Under the pieces are notes generated by a model, which made no database searches, was not told where the DNA came from, and was given only the letters and a program-made list of their open reading frames with translations. DNA of 52,247 bases from Bacteroidales bacterium (GTDB lineage Bacteria > Bacteroidota > Bacteroidia > Bacteroidales > B18-G4), in assembly GCA_021107535.1 (NCBI GenBank), contig JAIOSQ010000016.1, positions 1 to 52,247 of the forward strand. Reading direction: 5' to 3'. Shown here piece by piece: positions 29,401 to 47,169 of the stretch; position 1 is the stretch's first letter; each line of letters opens with the position of its first letter. Position numbers and translations under genes: made by a program.

Positions 29401-30689
29401 AAACATCAATCCAAAAACGAGTAGTTGTAACAGGTATTGGCCCGGTAACTCCCATTGGTATTGGGAAAGATGATTTCTGGAATAACCTTTTTAACAAACA
29501 GAAAATTGTTCAAAAAATTCCTGAAAGCTTTACAAAGAATCACCATTTTCATTCAAGATTTTATATCCCCTACCCGAAGTTTTTTCTTGAAGATTATGGC
29601 TTCTCAAATAAGTATAATTCAGTTATGGAAGAGACCTCAAAATTATCAGTAATAGGCACAAAGCTGGCACTTGAGGATGCAGGTTTTCACATGACTGGGA
29701 ATTTGCCGGATGAGCCATGGCTTATAGAGAATTCTGCCATAATCCTTGGGATAGGCATATGCAGTTTGAAGGCAGCTTTCCAGGCCTATGTTGCTCATAG
29801 TTTTGGCACTGATACAGATTTTCTTGAGAAAAATGGAATAAATGCGAGGTATAACAGAATGGTTATTCCCACCATCATGCCTAATTCTGCCAGTAGCTGG
29901 ATTTCGGTTTTATTTAACATTCACGGTGCGGCATACACGATAAATGCTTCCTGTGCATCCGGCACTTATTCCGTAGTTGAAGCATTTCGTAAAATCAGGG
30001 ACGGATACCATGACCTTGTGATATGTGGTGGTGTAGAATGTTTGCAGGATGACAGCGGAACAATCATGCGAGGTTTTGATTCTTTAGGTGCATTGACAAA
30101 GTCTGAGAACGGCTTGCCCAAGCCTTTTTCCAAAGACAGAAGTGGCTTTTTGTTCTCTGAAGGAGGAGCTTGCATACTTATCCTCGAAGAATATGAATCA
30201 GCAATTAAGCGTGGCGCTGAAATTTATGCAGAAATTGATGCCTGTGAATTTAACAGTGATGCTTATAATATCGTTCAGATTGATCCGTCGGGAAGTAGGA
30301 TAAAAAGCATATTTAGCAAATTATCCGAAGGCAAATCCATCGATTACATTAACGCTCATGGGACAGCTACTTTTCATAATGATCAGGTTGAGAGAGAGGT
30401 AATTAAAGAGGTTTTTGGCGACAAAACCACTCAACCACTGATCAATTCAACAAAAAGTATTCTTGGTCATTCTATTGGTTCAAGCGGTGCCATTGAGGTT
30501 GGGGTTACAGCACTTTCGGTTAAAAACTCAAGCATTCATGCCAATATATCTGAAAACACATTTGAAGACCTTAACCTCGCCACTGAGAACACAGTTGGCA
30601 AAATCAGCTATGCTATTACTACATCATATGGATTTGGAGGTCATAATGTCGGTATACTTCTTAAACAACATCAGGATAAAAGAACATGA
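29397..30689 (+). CDS. Beta-ketoacyl-ACP synthase (KAS I/II type, Cys-His-His)
   Basis: VVVTGIGPVTPIG, active-site INASCASG, INAHGTAT, SILGHSIGSSG. ATGA overlap with the upstream gene. Confidence 0.88.
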   Translation: MKTSIQKRVVVTGIGPVTPIGIGKDDFWNNLFNKQKIVQKIPESFTKNHHFHSRFYIPYPKFFLEDYGFSNKYNSVMEETSKLSVIGTKLALEDAGFHMTGNLPDEPWLIENSAIILGIGICSLKAAFQAYVAHSFGTDTDFLEKNGINARYNRMVIPTIMPNSASSWISVLFNIHGAAYTINASCASGTYSVVEAFRKIRDGYHDLVICGGVECLQDDSGTIMRGFDSLGALTKSENGLPKPFSKDRSGFLFSEGGACILILEEYESAIKRGAEIYAEIDACEFNSDAYNIVQIDPSGSRIKSIFSKLSEGKSIDYINAHGTATFHNDQVEREVIKEVFGDKTTQPLINSTKSILGHSIGSSGAIEVGVTALSVKNSSIHANISENTFEDLNLATENTVGKISYAITTSYGFGGHNVGILLKQHQDKRT

Positions 30690-31732
30690 AGGGAAATGAT
30701 AAACATAGGGTATTTATTACCGGAGCAAATGGCCTGATTGGTAGTCATATTACTGAATACTTCAGTGATATGAAAATAAGCCTCGTTTGTGGGGTAAGAA
30801 AGTCAGCTGACATTTCACATATCAGCAATTTACCTGTTGAGTTCAGGTATATTGATATCAGGCATCTCGATTCGCTTATAACCAGCTTCAACGACTGCGA
30901 TTTTGTCATACATACAGCCGGGCTCACAAACGACTGGAGCAAATACAGGGATACATATGAAACAAATGTTGTCGGCACCTTAAATGTGCTGCGAGCATGT
31001 AAAATCAATGGTATTAAAAATGTAATTATTACAGGGTCTATTGCAAGCTATGGAGAAGAAAATTCAATTATTATCAAAGACGAAAACTCTCCTTTTAAGC
31101 CACGTCAACATTATTTTCTTGAAAAACTTATCCCCTCCCGGATGAACTTTTACAGGATTTCGAAGGCAGAGTGTACCAGACAAGCAACAGATTTTGGCAG
31201 TAAGAATAATCTTAACATAACAATTATTGAGCCTGTGTGGGTTTATGGGGAATATGAATTTTCGTCCGGCTTTTATGAATACTTAAAAATTATCAAGTCG
31301 GGTATCTCCTTTTTTCCCGGCAGTAAGAAAAATAAATTCCATGTCATATATGCCAGGGACCTGGCAAAAGCATATTACCTGGCCTACGATAAAAATCTTT
31401 CAGGAATTAATAGATTCATTATCGGCAATAATAATATAGATTCGATGGAGTACATCTATTCATTATTCTGCAAGCAAATTAACAGTAAAAAACCCCGAAA
31501 TATTCCACGCCTGCTTGCAAATCCTGTCGGTATAGCTCTTGAGTTCTTTGCCGAGATATTCAATTTAAAAAATCCTCCGGCTTTAACCAGGGCTCGCGTA
31601 GATATGATGTATGACAACATTGAATACAGTATAAAAAAAGCTGAACACATATTAGGATTTAAAAATGAATTTACCCTGGAAGAGGGTGTTCACCGGACAG
31701 TAAGCTGGTATATTAAAAACAAATATCTCTAA
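30686..31732 (+). CDS. NAD(P)-dependent epimerase/dehydratase-family SDR (probable ketoreductase)
   Basis: VFITGANGLIGSH Rossmann motif and YRISK catalytic Y-x3-K. ATGA overlap with the KS gene. Confidence 0.85.
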   Translation: MKGNDKHRVFITGANGLIGSHITEYFSDMKISLVCGVRKSADISHISNLPVEFRYIDIRHLDSLITSFNDCDFVIHTAGLTNDWSKYRDTYETNVVGTLNVLRACKINGIKNVIITGSIASYGEENSIIIKDENSPFKPRQHYFLEKLIPSRMNFYRISKAECTRQATDFGSKNNLNITIIEPVWVYGEYEFSSGFYEYLKIIKSGISFFPGSKKNKFHVIYARDLAKAYYLAYDKNLSGINRFIIGNNNIDSMEYIYSLFCKQINSKKPRNIPRLLANPVGIALEFFAEIFNLKNPPALTRARVDMMYDNIEYSIKKAEHILGFKNEFTLEEGVHRTVSWYIKNKYL

Positions 31733-33034
31733 ATGATGAAAATGCTAAGAGTTAAGAAGATAATTGGACAGAAAAAGAAATGGGTCGATCTACGGATCAT
31801 AATCATCACATTTCTGTTCTTTTTGTCACAAATTATAAGGGGAAATATCAGGCTTAAATATTTTTTAAGGGTATTAAAAAGACTATTATTTTTCTTGTCA
31901 ATGATGAAACACAATAAATACATTAGAATTGGGAGAAAGATAAAAATCAACTTGTATGTGCCTGCATTTCCAAGCAGGGCATTTTTCACTGCCTGCTATA
32001 AAGTTGCAGAATTTGAAAACAAAATGCCAAGTGTCACGGCATTGGTGTCCATTACATCCGCCTGTCGATTTAATTGTAAGCATTGTTATCAGAAGTTTGA
32101 TAAGGGTAAAGATATTGAGCTCAATTTATTGACAGACACTATCAATAAGTTACAGGATATGGGTATTGCTTTCTTTAATATTGAAGGAGGTGAGCCTTTC
32201 ATTGTTTTCGATCGATTGCTGGAAGTATGCAAAACTATCGACAACAGGTCTGAAATATTAATTAATTCCACAGGTGATGGTATGACATATGAAAAGCTGG
32301 CGGAATTGAAAAAACTTAAAAATTTATACGGGATCATGTTTTCCCTGCATACAAGTCATGCTGAAGGTTTGAATGAGTTCATGGGAAGCGATCATGCTTT
32401 TAATACCTTGGAAAACGGAATCGGCCTTTGCCACGAAGCAGGGATCCCTGTCACTTTCAATTCCTGCATTATGAAAGAAGAGTTTTATGATGGCACCTTT
32501 GAAAAAGTGATGGACCGGGCTAAAAAATTCAATGGTGCCATACTTCAATTGATCAAGCCAAAACCAGCCGGAGGCTGGCTGGAATCAGGTACAGATAATT
32601 TCTCTGAAGAAGACATAAAGGTGGTATATGAGAAAACAAGAAAATATAACCAGGACAAGGATTTTATGGATTATCCCTTCATCGTACCAATGGCTATTGA
32701 GGAAAGCAAGGAGTTGTTTGGTTGTACTGCCGGAGGTACTGACCGCTTCTATTTAAATGCCAAAGGTGATGTTCAGCCCTGCGAATTTCTGAATATATCA
32801 TTTGGGAACATTAATAATGAGCCTTTTGAAATGATATATGATAAAATGAGGCAACACTTTGAGGTTCCGGGCGATTGTTTGTTATGTGAAGAATACTCAA
32901 AAAATATCTATGATATATTTAAACAACATAAACTTGATTCGTTGCCATTGCCGCCTGATCTCTCGGCCAAAGTGTATGGGCAATGGAACAGAGGTGAGCC
33001 TTCTGACTTTTATAGAAAAATTGAAAAAATCTAA
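31733..33034 (+). CDS. Radical SAM enzyme with N-terminal hydrophobic segment and C-terminal auxiliary Cys-rich (SPASM/twitch-like) region
   Basis: CRFNCKHC (Cx3Cx2C), FNIEGGEPF, and C-terminal FGCTAGGTDRFYLNAKGDVQPCEF plus GDCLLCEE. The ATG abuts the upstream TAA. An alternative internal start (MMKHNKY) is possible. Confidence 0.85.
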   Translation: MMKMLRVKKIIGQKKKWVDLRIIIITFLFFLSQIIRGNIRLKYFLRVLKRLLFFLSMMKHNKYIRIGRKIKINLYVPAFPSRAFFTACYKVAEFENKMPSVTALVSITSACRFNCKHCYQKFDKGKDIELNLLTDTINKLQDMGIAFFNIEGGEPFIVFDRLLEVCKTIDNRSEILINSTGDGMTYEKLAELKKLKNLYGIMFSLHTSHAEGLNEFMGSDHAFNTLENGIGLCHEAGIPVTFNSCIMKEEFYDGTFEKVMDRAKKFNGAILQLIKPKPAGGWLESGTDNFSEEDIKVVYEKTRKYNQDKDFMDYPFIVPMAIEESKELFGCTAGGTDRFYLNAKGDVQPCEFLNISFGNINNEPFEMIYDKMRQHFEVPGDCLLCEEYSKNIYDIFKQHKLDSLPLPPDLSAKVYGQWNRGEPSDFYRKIEKI

Positions 33035-33039
33035 GATCA

Positions 33040-34074
33040 ATGAACTATTCTAGGATATATCAAAATAGCATTTATAGATTTCTTAAAGTCTATATAAAAT
33101 CCATGCGGCTGTATTATTCCTTCGTAACAGGTATTGCCGGATGGATTGGTGTAGCATTTTACCAATACATTGCTACCTCTGAAGGACCAAGAGGTACTTC
33201 GAATATGATAAAAACTATAGAAACCCCCACACAACTTGATAAAAAACTTCTAATACTGTTTATCCTATTCCTTGCCTGGGGAATAAATCAGATAATTAAT
33301 GATTTCCTTGGATACAAAGAAGACAAGATCAATGCACCCATGCGGCCGATGGTAAGTGGTGAACTTTCAAGGTATAAGGCTCTCATCCTTTCAATGTTCC
33401 TTATGCTTCTTATCCTTCTCGTAACCTGGTTTTACCTTGAGCCCATTGCAGTTATCCCCCTGGTGATTGGGGCCTCATTAAATGTTATTTATGAATATGC
33501 CAAAGGCTACGGCATCTGGGGAAATATATCTTTCGGTGTAATGATCAGTATGTGTGGATTATTTGGATTTTTTGCTTCAGGACCTATGGAAATATATTTC
33601 ACCCGAAGCAGGGTTAGTGCCCTCATATTCATTGCTGTTATTAACGGGTTGATGACTTATTATACCTATTTCAAAGATTATATGGGTGATAAGTTAACTG
33701 GCAAGAAAACTATTGTGGTAAAATTTGGGCTTGAAAAAAACAAAATTATTGCCATTATCGCGTCCTTTCTCCCCTCTATTTTTTTTCTAACTGGTTATTT
33801 CGGTTTCGGAGCTTTCCAGATAGAGCTAAACAACATCTTTATTATCCTTGGTTTTATGACCATCTTCCTACAGGTATGGACAGGAGTGTTGTATTACAGG
33901 AATCCCAGAGGAGAAATGACATATTATTCCCTCGTGACAAATTTCAGGGCATGCACCTGTGGTCAGGCAACGATTATAGCGCTATTCAATCCCACACTTG
34001 GGCTAATACTTTTTTTAATGTCTTATGTATTTGTTGGTTTCCTTTTTAACCTTCATACAAACATAAAAGCTTAA
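33040..34074 (+). CDS. UbiA-family prenyltransferase (integral membrane)
   Basis: About 8-9 TM helices. The first motif is NQIINDFLGYKEDKINAPMRPMVSG and the second is YFKDYMGDKLTGKKT. Confidence 0.85.
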   Translation: MNYSRIYQNSIYRFLKVYIKSMRLYYSFVTGIAGWIGVAFYQYIATSEGPRGTSNMIKTIETPTQLDKKLLILFILFLAWGINQIINDFLGYKEDKINAPMRPMVSGELSRYKALILSMFLMLLILLVTWFYLEPIAVIPLVIGASLNVIYEYAKGYGIWGNISFGVMISMCGLFGFFASGPMEIYFTRSRVSALIFIAVINGLMTYYTYFKDYMGDKLTGKKTIVVKFGLEKNKIIAIIASFLPSIFFLTGYFGFGAFQIELNNIFIILGFMTIFLQVWTGVLYYRNPRGEMTYYSLVTNFRACTCGQATIIALFNPTLGLILFLMSYVFVGFLFNLHTNIKA

Positions 34075-34084
34075 TTCCTGGAGT

Positions 34085-35290
34085 ATGGAAATTTTTGCGA
34101 AAGCAAGCATTGGCAATTGCATCTTAAAAAACAGGATCATTCGTTCTGGTACCTATGAAGGGATGTGTGATGATAAAGGATTCCCAGGCGCTCAATATTA
34201 TTCACTATATGAAACACTTGCAAAAAATGATATTGGCGGAATCATTACCGGTTTCGCATACATATCTGAAGAGGGGAAGGCAATGCAATCAGGACAGGCA
34301 GGAATTGATGAAAAGGCAAAGATTCAATACTATAAGAAGTTGACAGACATTGTTCACCATTATAATTCAAAAATCTTCCTACAGATTGCACATACGGGAA
34401 GACAAACTATTCAATCTGTCACCCAAAATACGGTTGTCGGATGCTCAAAGAAAAAGTCAATATATTTCAGGGAAACCCCGAAAATATTATCTACTTCTGA
34501 GATTTACACTCTTATCGAAAAATTCGGAAGATCTGCACTTTACGCAAAAGAAAGTGGTTTTGATGGTGTGCAACTGCAGGCCGCCCATGGGTACCTGATC
34601 CATCAATTCCTAATGCCATCAGTAAACAATCGGAATGATGAGTTTGGTATTGATCCTGAATATGGTATCGGATGCAGATTTCTCGGGCTCATTATTGATA
34701 ATATCAGAGAAAAATGCGGTATTGAGTTTCCCCTGCTGGTTAAAATCAGCGGAAGCGATGATTATAGGGTGAAATTCACAGAAAAGAACTTTAAAGACCT
34801 AATTGCATATCTTGATAAAAAAAGAGTAGATGCCATTGAGATCAGCTATGGATCAATGGATTACGCATTAAATATTTTTAGAGGGGATTTCCCAACTGAG
34901 TTGATATTGGCAAAAAATCCGTTTTTTAAAACACATAATCCATTGAGAAGAATTTTTCTCCGGAACATCTTGTTCCCATATATCCGGTCAAAACTATATG
35001 CTTTTTCACCCATATATAATCTAAAATATGCGATTATGGCTAAGCAGCATTCCGGGATACCGATTATATCAGTTGGGGGCTATAGAAACCTGGAAGAAAT
35101 TGAATTTGCAATAATGAAGAATCATATAGATTTTGTTGGCATTTGCAGACCATTTATTGCCGAACCGGATTATATAAAGAAGATCAGCAAAAATAAATCG
35201 CACCAATCATCATGCATTAACTGTAATTATTGCGCGATAATGTGCGATACTAAACACTATACTAAATGCTATAAAACTACAACATCATGA
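34085..35290 (+). CDS. Old-yellow-enzyme family NADH:flavin oxidoreductase with C-terminal Cys cluster
   Basis: LKNRIIRS, FLQIAHTGRQ, GFDGVQLQAAHGYLIHQFL, GICRPFIAEPD and C-terminal CINCNYCAIMC. Confidence 0.85.
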   Translation: MEIFAKASIGNCILKNRIIRSGTYEGMCDDKGFPGAQYYSLYETLAKNDIGGIITGFAYISEEGKAMQSGQAGIDEKAKIQYYKKLTDIVHHYNSKIFLQIAHTGRQTIQSVTQNTVVGCSKKKSIYFRETPKILSTSEIYTLIEKFGRSALYAKESGFDGVQLQAAHGYLIHQFLMPSVNNRNDEFGIDPEYGIGCRFLGLIIDNIREKCGIEFPLLVKISGSDDYRVKFTEKNFKDLIAYLDKKRVDAIEISYGSMDYALNIFRGDFPTELILAKNPFFKTHNPLRRIFLRNILFPYIRSKLYAFSPIYNLKYAIMAKQHSGIPIISVGGYRNLEEIEFAIMKNHIDFVGICRPFIAEPDYIKKISKNKSHQSSCINCNYCAIMCDTKHYTKCYKTTTS

Positions 35291-35529
35291 AAACAATTGA
35301 AGAAGCAGTAATCACTGCCCTGAAAGAAAATACCAGTTGGGACGGTGAGATCAAGATGGAACAAACACTCAGGGATGAACTGGGAATTGATTCATTTGGT
35401 GTTCTGATGATTATTAACACACTGGAAGATGAATTCGGTATTGAAATCAGCAATGAAGATATTGAAGGACTGGGTACTGTTGCTGATATTATTAACCGGC
35501 TAAATGAAATTCTTTCAGTAAATGCCTGA
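35287..35529 (+). CDS. Acyl carrier protein
   Basis: 80 aa, acidic, phosphopantetheine attachment motif LGIDSFGVL. ATGA overlap with the upstream gene. Confidence 0.88.
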   Translation: MKTIEEAVITALKENTSWDGEIKMEQTLRDELGIDSFGVLMIINTLEDEFGIEISNEDIEGLGTVADIINRLNEILSVNA

Positions 35530-36706
35530 AGACATGAACTTACAGCAATTCTATCAACGTTTTAACGTAGATTATGAACTTGTTCGGAAGGCAGGGTTCA
35601 ATCCTTATTACCCGGTGATCGAATCAGGCCTTGATGATATAATCATCGTTGAAGGAAAGAAATTTATTGACCTCGCATCGAACAATTACCTCGGCCTAGC
35701 CAATGATATACGCCTTAAAGATGCAGGAAAACTGGCAATAGAAAAATATGGCATGTCATTATGTGCTACTCCTATTGCTTCTGGATATTCTGAGTTGTAT
35801 GATATGGTAAGACACAAACTTTCAGAATTTGTAGGTTTGGAAAACACCATTTTATATCCATCCTGCTATCAAGCCAATAATGGTTTATTCAATGTGATAG
35901 CAGGCAGGGAGGATATTGCTATTATCGATCGATGCTCCCATTCTTCATTAATAGAAGGAGTTAAAAGTGCCGGATGCAAGATATGGCCCTTCCGGCATAA
36001 TGATATGACCCACCTGGAAAAAGGACTGAAAATATCGCAGAAATATCGTCAGGCCTATGTGATCACAGAATCCGTATTCTCAACCGAAGGAACCATTGTG
36101 CCATTTAATGAAATCGTTGCATTATGTGATAAGTATGGTGCACTTCCGGTTATTGATGATTCACATGGTATTGGTGTTATTGGCAAAACAGGCAGAGGAA
36201 TCCTTGAACATGCAGATATAAAAGACTATAACGGAATTTATACTGCATCCCTGGGTAAATCACTGGCCAATTCGGGCGGCATGATCAGCGGGAAAAAAGA
36301 GATTATTGATTTTCTGAAATACTATAGTTCACACCTGGTATATTCAACTTCAATAATTCCTTCATCTCTGGCAGGAATAGATGCTATTCTTGACATTATA
36401 GATAAAGAATTTCCGGAGAGAAGCAAAAAAATGTGGCATTATACAAAGCTAATTTGTGATACTCTTATTGAATTAGATTATAAGGTATCTAACAGTTCAA
36501 CAGCCATCACATCAATAAAATCAGGCAATCCCTTAGAGACATTGCAATTGACACGAAAAATCTTTGACAGGGGAATACTGGTAACTCCGTTTATCTATCC
36601 CTCTGTACAATATAATGAAGGTAGAATAAGATTAATTGCCGGTGCTAACCTGACCCAGCCAACATTGGATAAAGCCCTGAAAGCATTCCGGAATATCAAT
36701 GACTAA
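35522..36706 (+). CDS. PLP-dependent alpha-oxoamine synthase (serine palmitoyltransferase / AONS / KBL family)
   Basis: NNYLGL, DDSHGIGVIG and PLP-lysine block ASLGKSLANSGG. 8-nt overlap with the ACP gene. Confidence 0.88.
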   Translation: MPEDMNLQQFYQRFNVDYELVRKAGFNPYYPVIESGLDDIIIVEGKKFIDLASNNYLGLANDIRLKDAGKLAIEKYGMSLCATPIASGYSELYDMVRHKLSEFVGLENTILYPSCYQANNGLFNVIAGREDIAIIDRCSHSSLIEGVKSAGCKIWPFRHNDMTHLEKGLKISQKYRQAYVITESVFSTEGTIVPFNEIVALCDKYGALPVIDDSHGIGVIGKTGRGILEHADIKDYNGIYTASLGKSLANSGGMISGKKEIIDFLKYYSSHLVYSTSIIPSSLAGIDAILDIIDKEFPERSKKMWHYTKLICDTLIELDYKVSNSSTAITSIKSGNPLETLQLTRKIFDRGILVTPFIYPSVQYNEGRIRLIAGANLTQPTLDKALKAFRNIND

Positions 36707-37673
36707 ACATTTGAAATACATGTTCATAATAAATCCCTCTTCACATAGTGGGCGCAGCAGGAAAAAATTCCCTTTGCTGATCCGTTTGCTTGATGAAGCC
36801 GGAATAGATTATGAATATAAGATCACAAAAAATATAGATGATGCCTACAGGTATTCTTTAGAGGCCAACAAAAATAAACTCGATGTGATAACAGCTGTTG
36901 GGGGAGATGGAACAATCAATGCTGTTTTGAATGGGTTTTATGATACCTTCGGCAAAAGGATATCATCTTCTAAATTTGGAGTAATTTATACCGGTACCAG
37001 TCCAGATTTCTGTAAGAGCTATGGCATTCCGACGAATATTAAGCAAGCAGTGACCGTATTACTTGATAATAAATCCCGTTTTGTGAAAGTTGGGAAAATC
37101 ATACTTTCCAGACATAACAAAATTGAAAACCATGGTTTAAGTATTGATAAGATTCCGGATGCACAGGTGAAATATTTTGCCTGTTGTGCAAATATAGGCC
37201 TTGGTGCTTCCCTGGCCAGAATAGCAAACAAGGGTGTTCGAAAATATTTAGGCGATTTCGCCGGAACTTTTTTTTCTTTGCTAAAAGTGATCCTCAGCTA
37301 TAAACCCGGAAATATTACAGAAATAATTGATGGTCATACGGTCAATATTTCAAAATTCTATAACCTTTCCGTTGGGATAACACCTTTTATTGCCTCGGGC
37401 ATTAAAATACAGCATAAGCTGAATGAAGACGATGACAGGTTTTATTGTTTGCTTGTGAAGAATTTAAGTCTGCTGAAGCTGCCCGGTTTACTCAGAAAGG
37501 TATATAGCGGAAAACCAATAAAAACAACAAGTTATTTATTCCTTCATTATGCCCGCAACATAGAAATTGAAGGTAATTATAAAAATCCCGATGTAGAATT
37601 CGACGGTGACCCTGCAGGATTTCTTCCCTGCAGGATTGGTCCTGTTGAAGACAGGCTTGAATTAATTTCATGA
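36699..37673 (+). CDS. Diacylglycerol-kinase-catalytic-domain lipid kinase (YegS/sphingosine-kinase-like)
   Basis: FIINPSSHSGRS and VGGDGTINAV motifs. 8-nt overlap with the upstream gene; last gene of the operon. Confidence 0.85.
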   Translation: MTKHLKYMFIINPSSHSGRSRKKFPLLIRLLDEAGIDYEYKITKNIDDAYRYSLEANKNKLDVITAVGGDGTINAVLNGFYDTFGKRISSSKFGVIYTGTSPDFCKSYGIPTNIKQAVTVLLDNKSRFVKVGKIILSRHNKIENHGLSIDKIPDAQVKYFACCANIGLGASLARIANKGVRKYLGDFAGTFFSLLKVILSYKPGNITEIIDGHTVNISKFYNLSVGITPFIASGIKIQHKLNEDDDRFYCLLVKNLSLLKLPGLLRKVYSGKPIKTTSYLFLHYARNIEIEGNYKNPDVEFDGDPAGFLPCRIGPVEDRLELIS

Positions 37674-37746: not shown

Positions 37747-38946
37747 TCATTTCGTCCAATCAAGCAAACGCTGTTCCCCCTCAATTTTACGGATCTCACT
37801 GATCTCCTGGGAAACCTCTACCACGCCACAATATTTATTCTTTTCATCACGCAGGGCAAAATACTGGATCAGGATATACACTTTGCCCATCTTGATCCAG
37901 AAACTGGCTTTATCCTGCCTCCCATTGCGGAATTCTTCGATGATCTCTTCCACGATATCGATGCTTTCGGGAGGATGGCAGTTCCTGACATCCCTTCCCA
38001 CGATCCCTTTTGCACGCGGAAAGATCCTGTGCTTCGGGGTCGAAAAGTACTTTACTTTATTATGCTCATCCACATAGGTAATATCCACCGGAAGATGGTT
38101 GAACAACAGCATAATTTGCTTTACACTAAGCAAGCCTGTTCCCAGGTTGACTTCGCCCCTGATCATTTTTGGTGGCTTTTCAAGATTTTCCACTTCGAAA
38201 TCAGGCTGTACATATGGAAATTTCAGGTCGCGGCTGTCATCAAGCATTTTCCTGAGCTCCCCTGCCGGAATGCTTTGTTGCATTAGCGGAAATAGTATCT
38301 TTTCCTCCCTGAATTTGATGGCAAGCATGTTAAAGAACAGGTCGCCGGCCAACTTGTTGAATTTCTTAAGGTCCAGTTCAACTTTTTTGAGAATATTGAT
38401 GATCCCTTTCCTGTTTCGCCGGATATCATCATGAAATGACCACATCACCTGAAGGCACCTGTAATCAGGCCAGTGCTTTTCAAGTACAGGGAAAAGTACA
38501 TTTTCCTTGATCACATAATGAGCATCAAAGATTTCCAGTCCGGAAAAAAGTTTCAAAAGTTTTTTCTTTACTTCCAGTTCATTTTTGTTTTGATTGATCT
38601 TTCTGATCAAAGGACGGATGGCTTTCAGGCGTATATCCATCTCAGCATTGTTCCTTACCAGATAGTCGGTAAAGCTGTCCTTTTCCGGTTCCTGTCCCGG
38701 ATAATTTTTCAGGGATGTATGAAAGAGGTTCAGAAGCTTATTTACACCCGTTTTCAATACAGGCATAGGAATGTTGAGTTGCACCAGGTGATCCACCAGG
38801 GCAAGGACTGCCGAAGGTGTGATTTCATCCATCAGGTGCCGGTTTTTCCGAACGGTGTCAGCTGGACTTTCTGCATGGATAATAGCCAGGCTGAAATCAA
38901 TCAGCTCCTGCGGAATATTCTCTTTACGGCTTCTCTTTTCGGACAT
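37747..38946 (-). CDS. DUF438 / hemerythrin-like / PAS-type domain protein
   Basis: The C-terminal LPVDITYVDEHNKVKYFS...IFPRAKGIVGRDVRNCHPPES...FWIKMG is the DUF438-protein PAS-like module. The central region has H-rich hemerythrin-like helices (HYVIKENVLFPVLEKHWPD, WSFHDDIRR). Confidence 0.75.
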   Translation of the reverse strand: MSEKRSRKENIPQELIDFSLAIIHAESPADTVRKNRHLMDEITPSAVLALVDHLVQLNIPMPVLKTGVNKLLNLFHTSLKNYPGQEPEKDSFTDYLVRNNAEMDIRLKAIRPLIRKINQNKNELEVKKKLLKLFSGLEIFDAHYVIKENVLFPVLEKHWPDYRCLQVMWSFHDDIRRNRKGIINILKKVELDLKKFNKLAGDLFFNMLAIKFREEKILFPLMQQSIPAGELRKMLDDSRDLKFPYVQPDFEVENLEKPPKMIRGEVNLGTGLLSVKQIMLLFNHLPVDITYVDEHNKVKYFSTPKHRIFPRAKGIVGRDVRNCHPPESIDIVEEIIEEFRNGRQDKASFWIKMGKVYILIQYFALRDEKNKYCGVVEVSQEISEIRKIEGEQRLLDWTK

Positions 38947-39068: not shown

Positions 39069-39482
39069 ATGTTCCTGAATAAAACTACAAAATACGCATT
39101 GAGTATCCTTGCCTTTATGGCCAACGAACCTATGACACTGTACTCATCCGAATTTCTTCACGAGAAATTGAATATTCCCAGGAGATACCTGCGGCAACTG
39201 CTCACCGATCTCTCTAAACACGGATTTATCACAAGCAGCCGTGGAAGAAGTGGCGGCTTCCGGCTTAGCAAGGATGCCAAAAAGCTAAGCGTAGCTGATG
39301 TGATTGATAGCCTTGAAGGACTTGAGAACTATGAAAGTTGTTTCTTCGGAATTAAAAATTGCATCAATGACAAGTCCTGTGCCATGCATAAACCATGGCT
39401 TGATATTCGTGAGGAATTGTTTAAAACCCTTCATAACACAACATTATATGACCTTGGGCGTGATATTATTATAAAATTTTGA
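39069..39482 (+). CDS. Rrf2-family transcriptional regulator with Fe-S-type Cys triad
   Basis: N-terminal wHTH (TKYALSILAFMA...) and three cysteines in CFFGIKNCINDKSC (C-x6-C-x5-C), similar to the IscR/NsrR cluster ligands. Confidence 0.85.
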   Translation: MFLNKTTKYALSILAFMANEPMTLYSSEFLHEKLNIPRRYLRQLLTDLSKHGFITSSRGRSGGFRLSKDAKKLSVADVIDSLEGLENYESCFFGIKNCINDKSCAMHKPWLDIREELFKTLHNTTLYDLGRDIIIKF

Positions 39483-39544
39483 TTTTTTTTAAATTTATAT
39501 ACTACTTTTGGGTGGTATTTTATTATTAACTAAAAAAATTAACC

Positions 39545-40099
39545 ATGACCGACTCTTCACTAGTTTTGTATGGACAAACCATTGCATACACGTGCTATGC
39601 CATTGTGATCATACTTGTGATCGCATGGTTCGGGTTTGTTGTTACCCGCAAGGGAAAGGGAAACAAGGTAAGCAAGACCTTATTTTATTCTTTTGTAACC
39701 ATGCTGGTCATTCTCGGAGTATCTCTTCACATTGTGACCTTCAACACCATTCCATGGGTATCCATGGATCTCGACAGGAAAAATATCCAGGCTGACCAGG
39801 TATTCGACATCACCATGGAAAATCATCAGTTCATACTTCCTCAAGAGAAATTTGTTATTAACTGCGGCGAAAAAGTGATGTTCAATGTAACATCCAACGA
39901 TCTTACTTATGGCTTCGGCCTCTTCAGGAAAGACAATTCAATGATGTTCCAGATGCAGGTAGTGCCGGGGCATGTGAACGATATTCTCTGGGAATTCAAT
40001 GAGAATGGTATTTATACCATCCGATCTACTGAATATTCCGGCCCGAAAGGGCATCAGATGATCATAAAAGATGTTGTTCATGTGATCGGATGTGAGTAA
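39545..40099 (+). CDS. Heme-copper oxidase superfamily subunit II-like cupredoxin protein lacking CuA ligands
   Basis: Two N-terminal TM helices plus a cupredoxin domain. The CuA positions read DLTYGF (His->Tyr) and STEYSGPKGHQM (both Cys->Ser). Confidence 0.75.
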   Translation: MTDSSLVLYGQTIAYTCYAIVIILVIAWFGFVVTRKGKGNKVSKTLFYSFVTMLVILGVSLHIVTFNTIPWVSMDLDRKNIQADQVFDITMENHQFILPQEKFVINCGEKVMFNVTSNDLTYGFGLFRKDNSMMFQMQVVPGHVNDILWEFNENGIYTIRSTEYSGPKGHQMIIKDVVHVIGCE

Positions 40100-40122
40100 A
40101 AAAGTTTTCAAACTAAAAATTA

Positions 40123-41760
40123 ATGATTATGAGTTATATAAAGACTTTAATGAATGGTGAGCAGTCGATATTCAACCCTCGCAAACTGACACCCATGCAA
40201 AGGATCACCCTGCGATTTGTAGTGGTCGGCGTGCTTTACTACGGCCTTGCTGCCATTGAGGGAATGATCATGCGGATTTATCAGATCGAGCCCATTACTT
40301 TTCTCGGGTCAGATCATTATTTCGCAATCCTTACCGCCCACCCGCTGGTAGGAATATTCGGCTCTACTTATTTAATTGTATTCGGTGCTTTTCTTTTCGT
40401 GGTACCTTTTATGATGAAGAAACCTTTGTGGAGTATTAAACTTGCAAATGCTACTTTCTGGTTGATCACGATTGGTACTTTTGTGTTCTGGTTCTCAGGT
40501 TTTCTTACCCATTATGCACCATTATATACACTTTACTGGCCACTTCCGGCTGATTTCAACCAGTTTGATCCACTTAGCGGAGCATTCTTTATTACCGGGA
40601 TTGCCATTGTGATGCTTGGAACTGTTTTCTTTGTGATCAACATTTTCAAAACCATCGCATATACACCCGAAGGATGGGAAAAACAGCCTTCCGGGGCGCT
40701 TCTTGCCGATGCCATCGGATACAGCGGCTTACGGAATATGTTTAGAAAAAAAACCAAACAAAAGGAGCATCTTGTTGATATTCCTGTTGCGGCCATTGCC
40801 CGTGGTACTGTTGATACCGCATTAAATGCAGGCATCATTCTTTTTACCGGGGTATTAATACTGGTTTACATGGTAGCAGCCATTATGGGTTACGACCTGA
40901 AAACAACAGTAATCGATGCACTTTTATATAAAAACTGGTTCTGGTGGGGACTTGACCTCATTGCCGATGGGCTTGTTCTGATCTTTGTTGCAGGGACATG
41001 GTATCTATTGGCCATGATGATCACCGGTAGAAAGATATTCATGCAAAACATTGCAAGGGCAGCCTTGCTGGTGGAACTGATCGTATCATGGACGGTCTGG
41101 TCTCATCATCTGCTATCCGACCAGGCACAGCCCGGTATCCTGAAAATCATTTCCGGAGAATTTGTTACAGCCTTTGAATTGATCACACAGGGCCTTGCTT
41201 TCTTTGTCACTCTTGCTACCCTATGGTTGGCCAGGCCACTGAAGATGACCAATGAGCTGAAGTTTTTACTTGGTGGGCTTCTCGGATTCGGACTTGCCGT
41301 TCCGGCCGGGATCATGCAGGCCGATATCGGACTCAACAGGATCCTTCACAATACACAATGGATCATGGGCCCGCATGTTCATGTGGCCATATTGGTTGGC
41401 TTAACCATGACCCTTTATGCAGCCATTTACCTGCTGTTCCCCATCGTAACCAACGGGGCTAAACTTTACAGCCAGAAACTGGCGAACTTCCATTTCTGGG
41501 CACATTTGATCGGTGGGATCGGCATGGGTGCCTTTATGGGCATGGCCGGACTACAGGGTATGCTCAGAAGAACCATTTATTACGAAGGAGAATTCAACCT
41601 TTACATGATCCTGGCAGGAATATGCGGATTGCTGCTCTTACTTGCCTTCTTCGCATTCCTGTATAATATCATTATGAGTGTAGGCATCAATGGCTTGCTG
41701 GGAATATTCAGGCCTTCGCCGAATAAAACCAAAGATCTTCTGCCTGCTGAAACGGAATAG
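40123..41760 (+). CDS. Heme-copper oxidase superfamily subunit I, NO-reductase-like (gNOR-like)
   Basis: 12+ TM helices. His73 (TAHP), His328-His329 (WSHHLL) and His418/His420 (GPHVHV) are present. The helix VI segment WFWWGLDLIADG has no His or Tyr, with Asp278 at the CuB-His position. Confidence 0.8.
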   Translation: MIMSYIKTLMNGEQSIFNPRKLTPMQRITLRFVVVGVLYYGLAAIEGMIMRIYQIEPITFLGSDHYFAILTAHPLVGIFGSTYLIVFGAFLFVVPFMMKKPLWSIKLANATFWLITIGTFVFWFSGFLTHYAPLYTLYWPLPADFNQFDPLSGAFFITGIAIVMLGTVFFVINIFKTIAYTPEGWEKQPSGALLADAIGYSGLRNMFRKKTKQKEHLVDIPVAAIARGTVDTALNAGIILFTGVLILVYMVAAIMGYDLKTTVIDALLYKNWFWWGLDLIADGLVLIFVAGTWYLLAMMITGRKIFMQNIARAALLVELIVSWTVWSHHLLSDQAQPGILKIISGEFVTAFELITQGLAFFVTLATLWLARPLKMTNELKFLLGGLLGFGLAVPAGIMQADIGLNRILHNTQWIMGPHVHVAILVGLTMTLYAAIYLLFPIVTNGAKLYSQKLANFHFWAHLIGGIGMGAFMGMAGLQGMLRRTIYYEGEFNLYMILAGICGLLLLLAFFAFLYNIIMSVGINGLLGIFRPSPNKTKDLLPAETE

Positions 41761-41773
41761 ACATTCATTACAT

Positions 41774-41804
41774 AAAAAAAGGCGCTGGTGGCGCCTTTTT
41801 TTTT
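41774..41804. terminator. Bidirectional rho-independent terminator
   Basis: aaaaaaa-ggcgc-tggtg-gcgcc-ttttttttt between convergent genes ending at 41760 (+) and 41815 (-). Confidence 0.75.
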
Positions 41805-41814
41805 AGTTTACAAA

Positions 41815-43470
41815 TTAAATACCAAAAATCATTTCCTCAAATATTAATTCTGCAACAGCCCTTGTTGTCATTCCATTGAAAGACATTTGCTCGTTATCAT
41901 CAATTACATTTGGTTGAATGACCAAATTAGTCATTTGAACATATGAACCTTTACTATTTGTACAATTATACATTTCTTTTAATATCTGACCGGGAATCCT
42001 GTCAGAGTCTTTGTCCTGAAGAATAATTATATGTTCGCTCTTTTCTTTTTCTTTATCAATTATTTTCTCTCCTGTGTTATCATCCGGACCAGAAAGATTT
42101 ATACTCCGCAATACCTCAATAGGAAATGATTTTTCTCTAAGTTTATTTAAAAGTAAATGACCTATACCATGATCGGTGTAAAGCAGGTCTCCGAATACCA
42201 ATAGTGAGACTTTTGTACCGTTTTTATTCGTGATGCGTATTCGACTGATCGATTTGGTTATAATACCAGACTGATAATAATCTATAACATCACTGGCTTG
42301 AACTGAACTAAAGACACTATAAAGTATATCTGAAATTTCTATTTCAAAAAGTGAATCGATACAGTAATAAGATATCTTATTTTTTCGATATGTTTCTTCA
42401 AATTTTGATTCGGGCATATCATGTACAAGGATTTTTGCATCAGGAACTTCCTGATTAATTCTATGCACGTATGCCGGTCCATTATCAGCCAGGCCTATTG
42501 CATCGATCAAAATAATACTCTTGGGATTTTTTTCCATTGCTTCTATAGCCTCCTCAACTGTATATACACAATCAATTGCACAGCCAAGATTAATAAGCCT
42601 GGGTATATATGCTTTTTTATATTTTATGTTTCTATTCAAATAATCTGCACTTTTACTAAGGATTATTATATCGCGTGTTTGAGTGCTTTCAAGGTCTACA
42701 TCAATATTGAATGGATCAATTTGGGCAATCCAACACTTCTCAAAAGAATTTCTCACAAACACTGAGGTATCTAAAGTTAACTCATTATTGATCTCTTCAA
42801 TTCTTCCTGTTGCCGGAGAAGGAAGCATGATTTTGGATCCATCATTTAAAATAGCCGTGGCGAATGGCAAGCCTCTAAATACTGTATCATTCACTGTTGG
42901 AAGTATTATTTCATCAATCCTGTTGGAAATGAAAAAGGGAATTTGACAACCTGCACGAAATTTTCCATCTTTATCCTGTTTTAGCCAGGCTATATCATAG
43001 AACTTGACAGGCCTGCCTTCAGTAATCCATTTTTGCAGGCTGGATTGTTCAATTGAAGGGGATAAAATCTTTTTATCAGACTGCAATTTTGCCGAAATTA
43101 CCTTATTTATTGATTTAAGGATTTCCAATGGAGTAAATGGTTTTAAAATATAATCTGCAGCCTGTAATCTTATAGATTCTATTGCTGTTTCCATGCTGGG
43201 ATTGCCTGTTACAATCACAACGGGTAAAACAGGATCTTTCTCTCTAAGATGAGTAAGTAAATCAATCCCATCCATTTCATCCATTTTTAAGTCAAGAAAA
43301 ACAAGATCATACTTTCTTGATAATGCCAGTTTTAGTCCTTCGCGAGGCTTGGTTTTAGTATCCACTTTATATCCTTCATTGGTTAAAATTCTTGTGAAAC
43401 TTTCACAAACCACATTCTCATCATCGATGACCAGTATTGAAGCGTTTGTTTTCATAATAGTACCCTCCAT
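41815..43470 (-). CDS. Atypical response regulator: REC + GcvH-like domain + second REC-like domain + unknown C-terminal domain
   Basis: N-terminal ILVIDDE...DLVFLDLKMDEMDG...KPF receiver. Residues about 150-255 align to the glycine-cleavage H fold (W.K.DKDG...LP.V...LPSPATGRIEEINNEL...CWIAQI). There is also a later IILIDAIGLADNG receiver-like block. An alternative start is the ATG at 43455. Confidence 0.75.
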   Translation of the reverse strand: MEGTIMKTNASILVIDDENVVCESFTRILTNEGYKVDTKTKPREGLKLALSRKYDLVFLDLKMDEMDGIDLLTHLREKDPVLPVVIVTGNPSMETAIESIRLQAADYILKPFTPLEILKSINKVISAKLQSDKKILSPSIEQSSLQKWITEGRPVKFYDIAWLKQDKDGKFRAGCQIPFFISNRIDEIILPTVNDTVFRGLPFATAILNDGSKIMLPSPATGRIEEINNELTLDTSVFVRNSFEKCWIAQIDPFNIDVDLESTQTRDIIILSKSADYLNRNIKYKKAYIPRLINLGCAIDCVYTVEEAIEAMEKNPKSIILIDAIGLADNGPAYVHRINQEVPDAKILVHDMPESKFEETYRKNKISYYCIDSLFEIEISDILYSVFSSVQASDVIDYYQSGIITKSISRIRITNKNGTKVSLLVFGDLLYTDHGIGHLLLNKLREKSFPIEVLRSINLSGPDDNTGEKIIDKEKEKSEHIIILQDKDSDRIPGQILKEMYNCTNSKGSYVQMTNLVIQPNVIDDNEQMSFNGMTTRAVAELIFEEMIFGI

Positions 43471-43817: not shown

Positions 43818-45248
43818 TTATTCAATAATGTCTTGTGATTTTATTCCATGGTTTTTTAATAACTGATGAAAATTAGTCCGTTGCATTCCCACATCTTTAG
43901 CAGCATGGCTTATATTTCCTTCAGCACGTCGTAATGCTTCAACAAGAAAGCGTCGTTCTATTTCCCGGACAGCATTTTCTTTTACCTGCTGTTTAAAGTC
44001 CTTGAATTCATCCCATTTTTGAGGTAGTCCGTATATGGCATCATGTAAATAAATATTCTTAAACTCCGGTGGAAGATGTGATGGTTCAATTATATCAGAA
44101 TCACAAAGAATAGCAAGTCTTTCAACAAGATTTTTTAATTCCCTTACATTTCCTGGCCAATGGTATTCTTCCATTAATTTGATTGTTTCCGGATCAAATA
44201 TTTTATCTTTTAAATTGTTTTTCTTTTTAACTCTTTCTAAAAAAGTTAAAGCCAATCTGAGAATATCTCCCTTCCGCTCCCGAAGTGGGGGAATATGAAT
44301 CGGAACTCCCTGTAAACGATAAAAAAGATCTTCACGGAAGGTTTTTTCTTTAATCATCCTGGATAGCTTCCTGTTTGTTGAAGTAATTAAACGGATATCA
44401 ATGGTGTGCTCAATAATATCCCCAACTTTTCTAATTACACAGGTTTCAAGAACTCTTAAGAGTTTACTTTGTATTTCAAGGCTAATATTTGAAATTTCAT
44501 CCAAAAATAAAGTCCCTTTATCTGCAATTTCAAACAGTCCTTTTTTAGTGGCAATAGACCCGGAAAACGAGCCTTTAACATGCCCAAACAGTTCGCTTTC
44601 TAAAAGTGTCGGAGCCAATGCACTGCAATCACATGCAATAAACGGTTTGCTATTTCGTAAACTAAGTCTGTGAATCGCTTTTGAAATAAGTTCTTTTCCT
44701 GTCCCGCTTTCTCCTGTAATCAGTACTGTAACATTTGTAGGTGCAACACGTTTTATCAATGAAAAGACTTTCTCCATTTCAGGACTTTCTCCAATTAACC
44801 CTTCAAATCCTTTATGCAGGTTTAACTCTTTTCTTAGTGCAATATTTTCTTTTAGCAAGGCAGAATGTTTAATTACTCTCTTAATTATTATTTTTAGTTC
44901 ATCAGGAGAAAAAGGCTTGCTAATATAATCGGCAGCTCCCAGTTTAATTGCTTCAACTGCAGTTTGAATGGTTGCATATCCTGTAATAATAACCACTTCA
45001 GAAGAAATTCCTGCTTCTTTAATTCTTCTTAATATTTCTATTCCATCCAATTCCGGCATAATAATATCGAGAAGGATCAGATCATAATTTCCTGTTAATG
45101 CTTCTTCAAGACCATGTTTAGGTTCTGATTCAATATTGACATCATATATTTTTTCTGAAGATAAAATTCGCTTACAGCTCAGTCCAACAACAGCTTCATC
45201 ATCGATAACTAATATGCGATACTTCACTATATTATTATCAATACTCAT
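43818..45248 (-). CDS. Sigma-54-dependent response regulator (NtrC/Fis family enhancer-binding protein)
   Basis: REC (ILVIDDE...LILLDIIMPELDG), AAA+ GESGTGKE, the ESELFGHVKGSFSGS loop, and a C-terminal Fis-type HTH (GNISHAAKDVGMQRTNFHQLLK). Confidence 0.92.
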   Translation of the reverse strand: MSIDNNIVKYRILVIDDEAVVGLSCKRILSSEKIYDVNIESEPKHGLEEALTGNYDLILLDIIMPELDGIEILRRIKEAGISSEVVIITGYATIQTAVEAIKLGAADYISKPFSPDELKIIIKRVIKHSALLKENIALRKELNLHKGFEGLIGESPEMEKVFSLIKRVAPTNVTVLITGESGTGKELISKAIHRLSLRNSKPFIACDCSALAPTLLESELFGHVKGSFSGSIATKKGLFEIADKGTLFLDEISNISLEIQSKLLRVLETCVIRKVGDIIEHTIDIRLITSTNRKLSRMIKEKTFREDLFYRLQGVPIHIPPLRERKGDILRLALTFLERVKKKNNLKDKIFDPETIKLMEEYHWPGNVRELKNLVERLAILCDSDIIEPSHLPPEFKNIYLHDAIYGLPQKWDEFKDFKQQVKENAVREIERRFLVEALRRAEGNISHAAKDVGMQRTNFHQLLKNHGIKSQDIIE

Positions 45249-45249
45249 A

Positions 45250-47169
45250 TTACGTTCTTGTTTTTATGGGTAAAAGAATATTAAAAACAGTTCCTTTGCC
45301 TGGTTCGCTTTCACATTCGATATCACCCCCATGTTGCTGAATAATTCCATAACTTATACTCAATCCCAGACCTGTTCCTTTACCAGGAGGTTTGCTTGTA
45401 TAAAAAGGATCGAAAATCTTATTTAAATCTTCCTTTTTTATTCCACAACCAGTATCTTCAATAGTTATAAGTATGTGATTTTCATTACTCGAAGTAGATA
45501 TTGTTATTTTACCACTCTTTGAAATTGCTTCCCCGGCATTTAGAAGAATATTAAGAAATACTTGTTGTAACTGATTTTTATCTCCATTAATGATCGGAAT
45601 ATTATTAGAGTAATTTTCTTCAATGGCAACATTCATAAATTCTTTTTGACGCCTGATCAATTTCAGAATCTGTTGTAATATGTCATTGACATTTATATCC
45701 CCTTTTTGGGCGGGAGTCTGTCGTGCAAAATCAAGAAGTCCTCTTACAATTTCACACACTCTTGTTGTTTCTCTAATAATTATATCAATATCTTCCAGGT
45801 CTTTTTCCGAATTATGTTCCTTTTGCTTAAGTAAATGTGCAAAAGTGAGTACCCCTGTGAGAGGATTATTTATCTCATGTGCTATTCCGGCAGATAAGCG
45901 TCCGATGGAAGCAAGTTTTTCACTTTGGATAATCTGTTGCTGGGTGGTTTTTTGCAATTCTTTTTCTCGTTGTTCAATTGCTTCAGCCATTTGATTAATT
46001 GTATTACAGAGCTTCCCTATTTCACCGGCAGATTGAACACAGCAACGGGCTGTTAAATCACCGTTAATAACTTTTTCGCTCATTACGATAATATTATCAA
46101 TAGGCTTAAGCAACTTTCTGGTGTAGAAAAACATAAGTAGCAAACTTGCTATTGCGCTTATACTCACCATAATTATAAAAAATACTATGATGATTTTTTG
46201 AGGTTCTTTAAAGGGTTCTTCGAGTAAGCCCACATAAAGTGAACCTATAATATTATTATCCGGATCCAGGATAGGTTCATAGGATGTGATGTACCAGTTA
46301 TTAACCACGAATGCCCGGTCAGCCCATACTTTCCCTTGGTTAATTACACAATCATAAACCTCTGAACTCATCCTGCTTCCAATGGCTCTTTGATTATCTT
46401 TTCTTTTTACATTCGTGGAAATTCGAAGATCATCAAAAAAAATAGTTGCTGTTCCTATGTCTTCGCCCTTATAACTTTGACCTTGAAAAGCTTCTGATTT
46501 TATTTTATCAACGATTTCAAAATAATTATTTAATAGATATCCACCAAGCAGCAGACCAAGCATCTTTTCATTATCATTAGTATCGAGGGATAGAAAAGGC
46601 ACAACGGCAGCTATAATCATACCCCTGTTTTCAATTTCTTTTGAAATGAGTCGGGCTTTTGGTGTTTCTTCAATATTAATAATTGCCCGACGGGCTAATT
46701 TTTCGCTTTCATTATTCAAATAATCCTGCGATACCACCATGGTTCCTTTTGTATAATTCTGATCGCTTAAGGCTTTCTTAATTATGGACATTTCTGATAT
46801 ATCATCCCCGTTTTTTAAAGTATTGTGTGCACGATATATTACCCGCCCATCGGGCCCGACAAGGGTAAGGAAGTCCATGCCACTTTCATGGTAAATATTT
46901 TGCAATACTATCCCAAGGTCTTTTTTAACCTCTTGTTCTATGGGTAATGATATTCTTCGACGAAAGGAAATCGCTTTTAATACTTGCTCAATCTGATCAA
47001 TAGAATTGTTATAGATAATACGGGCAGAATTTAAATCCAGACGGACACGGGTTTGTACTTCTGTAAAATAAACTTTTTTAACATAAATAGTCATTACAGC
47101 AGCCAATATGACATTGGATACCAGAATTATTATGATTAATCCTATCGATAATTTTAATCGAATTGACAT
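45250..47169 (-). CDS. Sensor histidine kinase (TM - periplasmic Cache-like sensor - TM - HAMP - HisKA - HATPase)
   Basis: H-box SAGIAHEINNPLTG, N-box LNILLNAGEA, G-boxes EDTGCGI and GTGLGLS. Two TM helices flank an extracytoplasmic domain of about 290 aa. There is a 1-nt gap to the NtrC gene. Confidence 0.9.
   Translation of the reverse strand: MSIRLKLSIGLIIIILVSNVILAAVMTIYVKKVYFTEVQTRVRLDLNSARIIYNNSIDQIEQVLKAISFRRRISLPIEQEVKKDLGIVLQNIYHESGMDFLTLVGPDGRVIYRAHNTLKNGDDISEMSIIKKALSDQNYTKGTMVVSQDYLNNESEKLARRAIINIEETPKARLISKEIENRGMIIAAVVPFLSLDTNDNEKMLGLLLGGYLLNNYFEIVDKIKSEAFQGQSYKGEDIGTATIFFDDLRISTNVKRKDNQRAIGSRMSSEVYDCVINQGKVWADRAFVVNNWYITSYEPILDPDNNIIGSLYVGLLEEPFKEPQKIIIVFFIIMVSISAIASLLLMFFYTRKLLKPIDNIIVMSEKVINGDLTARCCVQSAGEIGKLCNTINQMAEAIEQREKELQKTTQQQIIQSEKLASIGRLSAGIAHEINNPLTGVLTFAHLLKQKEHNSEKDLEDIDIIIRETTRVCEIVRGLLDFARQTPAQKGDINVNDILQQILKLIRRQKEFMNVAIEENYSNNIPIINGDKNQLQQVFLNILLNAGEAISKSGKITISTSSNENHILITIEDTGCGIKKEDLNKIFDPFYTSKPPGKGTGLGLSISYGIIQQHGGDIECESEPGKGTVFNILLPIKTRT

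Follow-up and report, generated by a model that had tools for sequence, protein, structure and literature searches.

Results

A predicted NO-detoxification operon with a gNOR-type enzyme

The 52,247-nucleotide contig JAIOSQ010000016.1 of a Bacteroidales bacterium (assembly GCA_021107535.1), referred to at its full length as the window, probably carries at positions 39069-41802 a three-gene operon for detoxification of nitric oxide (NO), in which the gene for an Rrf2-family regulator is followed by those for subunit II and subunit I of a gNOR-type (norGH) heme-copper oxidoreductase (HCO) with predicted NO reductase (NOR) activity. The gNOR family is defined as a B-family-related group of HCOs with an Asp in place of one otherwise universal active-site His and no cross-link Tyr, together with a cupredoxin subunit II that lacks the CuA ligands (Murali et al. 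2024, PMC11214002), and apart from the B-family relationship the window enzyme shows all of these features. A first-pass annotation of the subunit I open reading frame (ORF) had given the Asp replacement as the mark of gNOR, in agreement with the published definition, and had placed the protein in this family. Our analysis supports that placement at the sequence level, by the published defining features (the Asp, the missing Tyr, and the CuA-less subunit II) and not by comparison with named gNOR sequences. Overlooked at that stage were a second invariant Asp (D282) at the Tyr position, and subunit II and the Rrf2 regulator as parts of the same unit.

The subunit I ORF is real and translates to 545 aa. 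Pfam COX1 (PF00115) matches residues 27-503 (E=1.4e-55), identifying it as a full-length heme-copper oxidase subunit I, and its scores against the NCBIfam oxidase equivalogs lie so far under the cut-offs (CtaD, 103 bits with a cut-off of 671; CcoN, 65 bits with a cut-off of 583) that it falls outside all routinely named oxidase types. Homologues in the databases have a length of 543 aa and M3 is nearly invariant, so that translation probably starts at the ATG at 40129; if so, the residue numbering of the first-pass annotation, also used here, is offset by +2 from that of the deposited 543-aa proteins. An AF2 model of subunit I (mean predicted local distance difference test score [pLDDT] 82.6, predicted template modeling score [pTM] 0.87) matches subunit I of the aa3 and bo3 oxidases in Foldseek with a template modeling score (TM) of ~0.75, which speaks to the general fold only.

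Helix VI carries two invariant Asp residues in place of the His and Tyr

Active-site residues were followed by codon check and through a family alignment of 59 sequences, with identity down to 40%, from Bacteroidota, Ignavibacteria, Chloroflexota, Actinobacteria, Thermoprotei, and Methanomethylicia. The heme ligands lie at the codons where they had first been annotated and are invariant, so that subunit I retains, by alignment, both low-spin heme ligands (H73 in TAHP, and H420) and the high-spin heme ligand (H418, which with H420 forms part of GPHVHV). The helix VII HH pair (H328/H329) is also confirmed by codon check and invariant, and these are the only two of the three canonical non-heme-metal His residues left in the sequence. 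W274, W275, G276, L277, D278, A281, D282, G283, S322, and an HNTQ motif are likewise identical in 59/59 sequences; S322 is the Ser reported earlier six residues ahead of HH, where the C family has its Tyr.

The helix VI segment reads W-G-L-D-L-I-A-D-G as first described, with Asp278 at codon 40954-40956, and the earlier claim that it contains neither His nor Tyr is upheld, with Y269 and Y294 in their annotated places. Residues 258 to 318 are free of His in all 59 family members, and the motifs WWGLD..ADG and W.HHL are present in all 85 of the subunit I ORFs from the loci that were fetched. Given this invariance, the missing helix VI His and Tyr are, on alignment evidence, a genuine fixed trait of the family, selected rather than an accident of sequencing or alignment. 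Other subunit I tyrosines that might migrate spatially toward the site are Y269, Y294, and Y436.

The register of this helix against the GHPxVY motif of other HCOs is method-dependent. D278 falls on the His with phmmer, L277 with hmmsearch, and G283, after a six-residue gap, with hhalign; ungapped scoring puts D278 on the His when the KN..WW anchor is included, and L279 when the downstream half-helix alone is scored. The clearest evidence comes from a bridging homologue, P0199 (WWGLHSYVN), which BLASTP aligns to window residues 265-333 without gaps, pairing its His with D278, its i+4 Asn with D282, and its HH with H328/H329 at equal spacing. Because of this alignment we conclude, with the register caveat just given, that D278 probably stands where the ligand His would be and D282 where the cross-link Tyr would be. 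What holds across methods, and what we regard as robust at the level of sequence, is the lack of any His or Tyr candidate in helix VI together with a pair of invariant Asp residues at i and i+4. No alignment found a helix VI His candidate, such as a His at the CuB position, which the first-pass annotation had named as evidence that would count against its reading. An Asp also agrees with Table A4 of PMC8756737, where the gNOR active-site residue is given as 'D'.

Subunit II is a cupredoxin without a CuA site

Subunit II is matched by NCBIfam CoxB over residues 14-178 (E=7.2e-9), and Pfam COX2 stays under its cut-off (E=0.0026). Its best PDB matches include the CuA domain of Thermus thermophilus ba3 oxidase (2cua and 1ehk_B; E about 5e-4 to 8e-4), and alignment to this domain places Y122 at H114, S161 at C149, and S165 at C153, with H170 retained at H157. 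Y122, S161, and S165, as well as the segments DLTYGFG and RSTEYSG, are invariant in 80 relatives. The alignment thus shows a ba3-like cupredoxin in which the CuA ligands are destroyed; with both bridging Cys gone no CuA centre is possible, which excludes a route for electrons from cytochrome c through CuA. From the loss of CuA we infer direct quinol oxidation, as in bo3.

The enzyme genes travel with an Rrf2 regulator and a conserved palindrome

The organization of these genes was compared in 80 genome loci. Subunit II lies ~0.6 kb upstream of subunit I in 75 of them, and the Rrf2 gene, for which 54 loci have a match, is on the same strand ~1.0 to 1.1 kb upstream of subunit I in all but one of those (53/54). 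The flanking genes are not conserved among loci, and the order and spacing of Rrf2, subunit II, and subunit I are fixed; together with the strong terminator-like hairpin that follows subunit I (Table 1), this marks a portable three-gene cassette. A foreign-DNA signal for the cassette was considered and rejected, since its GC content (0.43, compared with 0.40 for the window) is inside the window's spread.

The Rrf2 protein has Cys residues at positions 91, 98, and 104 that are invariant in 61 sequences, and three such Cys are the hallmark of cluster-binding Rrf2 proteins. It reaches 52 bits against the NsrR equivalog NF008240, whose cut-off is 182, and its best PDB match is IscR (E=6.5e-10), with NsrR (5n07) weaker (E=2e-5); on this score and ranking, the assignment of the regulator as an NsrR orthologue was rejected.

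Between the Rrf2 and subunit II genes is an inverted repeat that is a candidate operator. It encloses TACTTTTG (39503-39510), which matches a Bacteroidetes-type -7 element, for which we take the consensus to be TAnnTTTG; the operator sequence itself presumably differs from NsrR sites. Across related loci, the pattern ATRMTAY-N6-RTAKYAT is present at the promoter regions of 43 of 53, either just ahead of the Rrf2 gene or in the gap that separates it from the subunit II gene, at 6.5 per kb compared with 0.165 per kb elsewhere in the loci (~39-fold). The weight of the palindrome comes from this conserved position and not from its count in the window, and further copies in the window were rejected as regulon members, the single other match being weak and at chance level. 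Cassette and palindrome together suggest NO-responsive detoxification. No description of the Rrf2-norH-norG cassette or the palindromic operator of this Bacteroidota-type clade was found in the gNOR papers cited here.

Table 1. Positions of the cassette, its active-site codons, and adjoining features in the window
Feature	Position	Strand	Evidence or remark
Hemerythrin + PAS_10 protein, divergent from the Rrf2 gene	37747..38946	-	Pfam PAS_10 E=1.2e-29, Hemerythrin E=3.6e-7
Rrf2-family transcription regulator, 137 aa, first cassette gene	39069..39482	+	Pfam Rrf2 E=7.9e-31; NCBIfam rrf2_super 107 bits
Inverted repeat ATACTAC-N6-GTGGTAT, candidate operator, between Rrf2 and subunit II genes	39499..39518	.	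conserved across loci
Subunit II (norH-like, 184 aa), two N-terminal hydrophobic helices and a cupredoxin domain without a CuA site	39545..40099	+	CoxB, PDB alignment
Subunit I (norG-like) of the gNOR-type heme-copper enzyme	40123..41760	+	545 aa; probable true start ATG 40129
H73, axial ligand of low-spin heme, TAHP motif	40339..40341	+	codon check and family alignment
Helix VI motif W274-W-G-L-D278-L-I-A-D282-G283	40942..40971	+	invariant in 59/59 sequences; ungapped BLASTP to P0199
H328/H329, two retained helix VII ligands of the non-heme metal	41104..41109	+	codon check and alignment
H418-V-H420 (GPHVHV), high-spin heme proximal ligand and second low-spin heme ligand	41374..41382	+	codon check and alignment
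Intrinsic-terminator-like hairpin, 13-bp stem then T run	41774..41802	+	14 nt past the subunit I stop; marks the operon end

The family is isolated in sequence and widespread in anaerobes

A homologue search with the window subunit I returned more than 3000 proteins at E<=1e-10, the best 120 of which are 78 to 99% identical to it. Among 1.84 billion 50%-identity representatives, the helix VI motif is found in only two full-length clusters (P0121, 74% identity; P0123, 47% identity), and the next full-length relatives, at 22 to 30% identity, are ordinary HCOs with GHPVVY or similar motifs. By these searches, the family is very isolated in sequence space.

Close relatives are present in at least 556 GTDB species genomes. 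Over the 80 loci, which derive from Bacteroidales, Prolixibacteraceae, Ignavibacteria, Chlorobiota, Saprospiraceae, Melioribacteraceae, and Acidobacteriota metagenome-assembled genomes (MAGs), subunit I is 74 to 95% identical, and such identity across phyla suggests that the cassette is under very strong constraint, has spread laterally, or both. MAGs from a sulfidic cave are the source of several of the fetched relatives. When the window protein, P0123, and a further protein (P0335) served as queries, the MAG labels among the homologues were Bacteroidota, Ignavibacteria, KSB1, Anaerolineae, Dehalococcoidia, Actinobacteria, Thermoprotei, and Methanomethylicia; no Sulfurimonas, Sulfurovum, Persephonella, or "Candidatus M. 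oxyfera" (Damo_1118) protein was among the homologues of these three.

Two proteins from the representative search are unusual in their own right. P0199 (472 aa, 24% identity by BLASTP), which keeps the His and has Asn at the Tyr position, reads G-Y-V-H for the HCO H-x-H, so that the high-spin heme is predicted to have the unusual arrangement of a Tyr in place of its proximal His. P0241, a 462-aa HCO homologue, has an Arg for the His at the helix VI site (W-V-A-L-R-F-Y-L-Q) and H-W-Q-H in place of the HH pair, and looks like another uncharacterised active-site variant.

Genes around the cassette

Apart from the cassette, the window is an ordinary Bacteroidota chromosome, with an F-type ATPase, PheS, proteins with type IX secretion system (T9SS) tails, and a lipid-type biosynthetic cluster, and no nir, nos, nar, nrf, or hcp genes were found within its 52,247 nucleotides. 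The hemerythrin/PAS_10 gene that diverges from the Rrf2 gene has a match in 5 of the 80 loci, is a neighbour of the cassette only among the closest relatives, and takes the same divergent position in locus L081; a hemerythrin gene also adjoins a distant family member (L085). This protein is possibly linked in function to the cassette, and may be a sensor or repair protein related to O2 or NO. In an Anaerolineae MAG (L088/L089, 1-1566 and 7565-9638), the subunit II-subunit I pair is ~6 kb downstream of narH/J/I-like genes, with a NarL-type two-component pair upstream and a Crp/Fnr regulator downstream.

Two other parts of the window are recorded here. Ten co-directional genes on the forward strand at 28399-37673, including those for AIR-synthase-like, beta-ketoacyl synthase, NAD epimerase/dehydratase, radical SAM/SPASM, and UbiA prenyltransferase proteins, an OYE-type flavin oxidoreductase, a class I/II aminotransferase (Kbl/Spt-like), and a DAGK-type lipid kinase, look from their domains like a lipid or sphingolipid-type biosynthetic cluster. 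On the reverse strand at 41815-43470 is a gene for a 551-aa response regulator, in which the receiver domain is followed by a weak glycine-cleavage-H-like (GCV_H) domain and a long C-terminal half; it adjoins genes for a sigma-54 activator (43818-45248) and a Cache/HAMP histidine kinase (45250-47169), and none of the three is conserved beside the cassette in the other loci.

Discussion

Proposed function and the evidence that bears on it

If the window enzyme is a gNOR, its non-heme iron (FeB) would be bound in a 2-His/carboxylate environment (H328, H329, and D278/D282), four-electron reduction of O2 would be impossible with no redox-active Tyr, and the reaction would be 2 NO + 2 e- + 2 H+ -> N2O + H2O, with electrons presumably coming straight from menaquinol and not from cytochrome c because CuA is absent. 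The cassette would then be a self-contained NO-detoxification module in the Bacteroidota-type clade, whose members would be anaerobes meeting NO from nitrite chemistry or from neighbours. Its Rrf2 protein, with a predicted Fe-S cluster held by three Cys, would repress the promoter by binding the palindrome ATRMTAY-N6-RTAKYAT, which in the window overlaps the -7-like element, and damage of the cluster by NO would release this repression, as in NsrR. The N-oxide context seen elsewhere, namely the nar-like genes in Anaerolineae and the hemerythrin neighbour of another family member, is consistent with this proposal.

Several observations weigh against it. NO reduction is a family-wide inference for gNOR, no member of which has been purified or assayed, and the lack of biochemical characterisation noted in the first-pass annotation still holds in August 2026, when eNOR is the only one of the new NOR families with confirmed activity (PMC13592168). 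That the non-heme metal is iron is likewise conjectural. The profile methods disagree on the helix VI register against GHPxVY, and pLDDT near the active site is only ~56 to 76 in the AF2 model, so that which Asp ligates the metal is a prediction. A deep-learning preprint (10.1101/592808) states that gNOR has a His-to-Glu substitution at a heme ligand; here the heme His ligands are all invariant with no such change, and the only invariant Glu residues are E46 (helix I) and E352. On the regulatory side, the Rrf2 protein resembles IscR and CymR at least as closely as it does NsrR, the palindrome pattern in the window alone is at chance (2 matches, with 1.0 expected), and in more distant members of the family the subunit II and subunit I genes stay together without Rrf2, which confines the Rrf2 link to the Bacteroidota-type clade. 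The absence of nir, nos, hcp, and nrf genes from the window also counts on this side.

We consider it very improbable that the enzyme is instead a B- or bo3-type terminal (quinol) oxidase that reduces O2 at an unusual CuB site. O2 reductases are its best PDB matches in both sequence and fold, and a subunit II without CuA is known also from the bo3 quinol oxidase, but every characterised O2-reducing HCO needs three CuB His residues and a His-Tyr cofactor (PMC11214002). The window subunit I lacks this combination, which is common to the A, B, and C families, and its absence is a matter of family-wide invariance (no His over residues 258-318, an Asp where the Tyr would be, and a Ser where the C family has its Tyr), to which are added the oxidase equivalog scores far under their cut-offs. 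It is unlikely, if less so, that the heme-copper fold serves another chemistry here, such as N2O reduction, NO dismutation, turnover of some other small oxidant in sulfidic conditions, or simply an NO-binding sink. No counterpart of the site with two His and two carboxylates has been characterised, roles as an NO dismutase (NOD) and as a sulfide-insensitive N2O reductase have been put forward for other HCO offshoots (PMC11214002), and M. oxyfera has three NORs yet makes little N2O (PMC6094997). However, a bioinorganic mimic of the His/Asp site is reported to reduce NO, the families put forward as NODs and N2O reductases have their kinship with qNOR and cNOR and not with the B family (PMC11214002), and gene context gives no pointer to another substrate.

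A gNOR-type enzyme that reduces NO could also be a respiratory, energy-conserving NOR of a denitrification chain or a chain of dissimilatory nitrate reduction to ammonium (DNRA), with the Rrf2 protein an unrelated Fe-S or cysteine regulator that merely lies upstream. The Anaerolineae gene pair near nar genes and a Crp/Fnr regulator would fit this, as would the higher scores of the Rrf2 protein against IscR and SUF-regulator models than against NsrR. We consider it quite unlikely, as the order and spacing of Rrf2, subunit II, and subunit I are fixed while the flanks vary, the position of the palindrome is conserved at cassette promoters, and nir, nos, and nar genes are absent from the window. 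There is finally a slim chance that the 2-His and two-Asp site is a new type of heme/non-heme centre, with another metal or with sulfide-tolerant NO turnover, NO dismutation, or N2O reduction, and that the cassette is a major unrecognised N-oxide sink or N2O source; were that so, this sink or source would be located in mostly anaerobic Bacteroidota, Ignavibacteria, and neighbouring phyla that are not counted as denitrifiers. Detoxification of NO by a gNOR-type enzyme under control of its own regulator is the reading that we prefer.

The gNOR family is already in the literature, the databases contain thousands of entries near-identical to the window ORF, and nothing in the enzyme is surprising to a specialist in heme-copper oxidoreductases or changes the view of the family. 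Our additions are modest: a second invariant Asp, which takes the place of the Tyr, an Rrf2-norH-norG cassette that comes with an operator-like palindrome, and the breadth of the clade. Nonetheless, bioinformatics has predicted four NO reductase families, of which gNOR is one; no other HCO family is reported to have given up a metal-ligand His, the greenhouse gas N2O has its enzymatic source in NORs, and a gNOR has never been purified. The clade described here is tight, with at least 74% identity across phyla, is frequent in the genomes of anaerobic Bacteroidota-type organisms, and is packaged with its own predicted Fe-S regulator and a recognisable operator, and it offers as experimental handles a compact three-gene construct, a predicted inducer (NO or nitrite), and two residues, D278 and D282.

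Comparison with known systems

Credit for the gNOR family is reportedly also due to Sievert et al. 2008 and Hemp & Gennis 2008. Its members are predicted to oxidise quinol and are found in Bacteria and Archaea, mainly in sulfidic settings (PMC11214002), and both the domain range and the sulfidic habitats are shared by the window family; the genes are called norGH and the enzyme 'quinone-oxidizing non-electrogenic' (PMC8906906). The two differ in the His-to-Glu change at a heme ligand, which one preprint reports for gNOR and which is absent here, and the Rrf2 cassette and palindrome are a feature of the Bacteroidota-type clade.

The observations on B-family affinity point both ways: ba3 is the best match for subunit II, and the nearest subunit I relatives outside the family, at 25 to 29% identity, carry GHPVVY, but the profile-versus-PDB search and Foldseek with subunit I rank A-family and bo3 enzymes slightly above ba3. 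With T. thermophilus ba3 oxidase (1ehk/1xme), the window enzyme shares the KN..WW-x-x-[H/D] frame, the HH pair, and a subunit II that is closest to the ba3 CuA domain. Unlike ba3, it has Asp at the equivalents of both H233 and Y237 and Ser for the CuA Cys residues, and thus lacks the defining O2-reductase features. The sNOR/bNOR (qCuANOR) enzymes are B-family offshoots with no Tyr and with a cupredoxin subunit II, and one homologue in our searches (P0227, GHTLVN) has the same frame. However, sNOR/bNOR keep three His residues, with an Asn replacing the Tyr (Table A4, PMC8756737), whereas the window enzyme has Asp at both positions and has lost CuA; sNOR is described as cytochrome c-oxidising (PMC8906906).

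The cNOR and qNOR enzymes (NorB and NorZ) have the same predicted reaction (2 NO to N2O) and a carboxylate-containing non-heme metal site, and qNOR shares quinol as the predicted donor. They differ from the window enzyme in their C-family lineage, in an FeB with three His and a Glu, and in a cytochrome c subunit or fused N-terminal domain, and the best sequence similarity of the window subunit I is to A- and B-type subunits.

For the regulator, the nearest functional parallel is NsrR, with which the window protein shares the Rrf2 winged helix, three conserved Cys, a gene beside an N-oxide gene, and a palindrome at the promoter. It differs from NsrR in scoring under the equivalog cut-off, in being closer to IscR in the PDB, and in that its NO sensing is a prediction. 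In the CFB group, Rrf2 regulator genes are also reported to precede clade II nosZ (PMC6264515).

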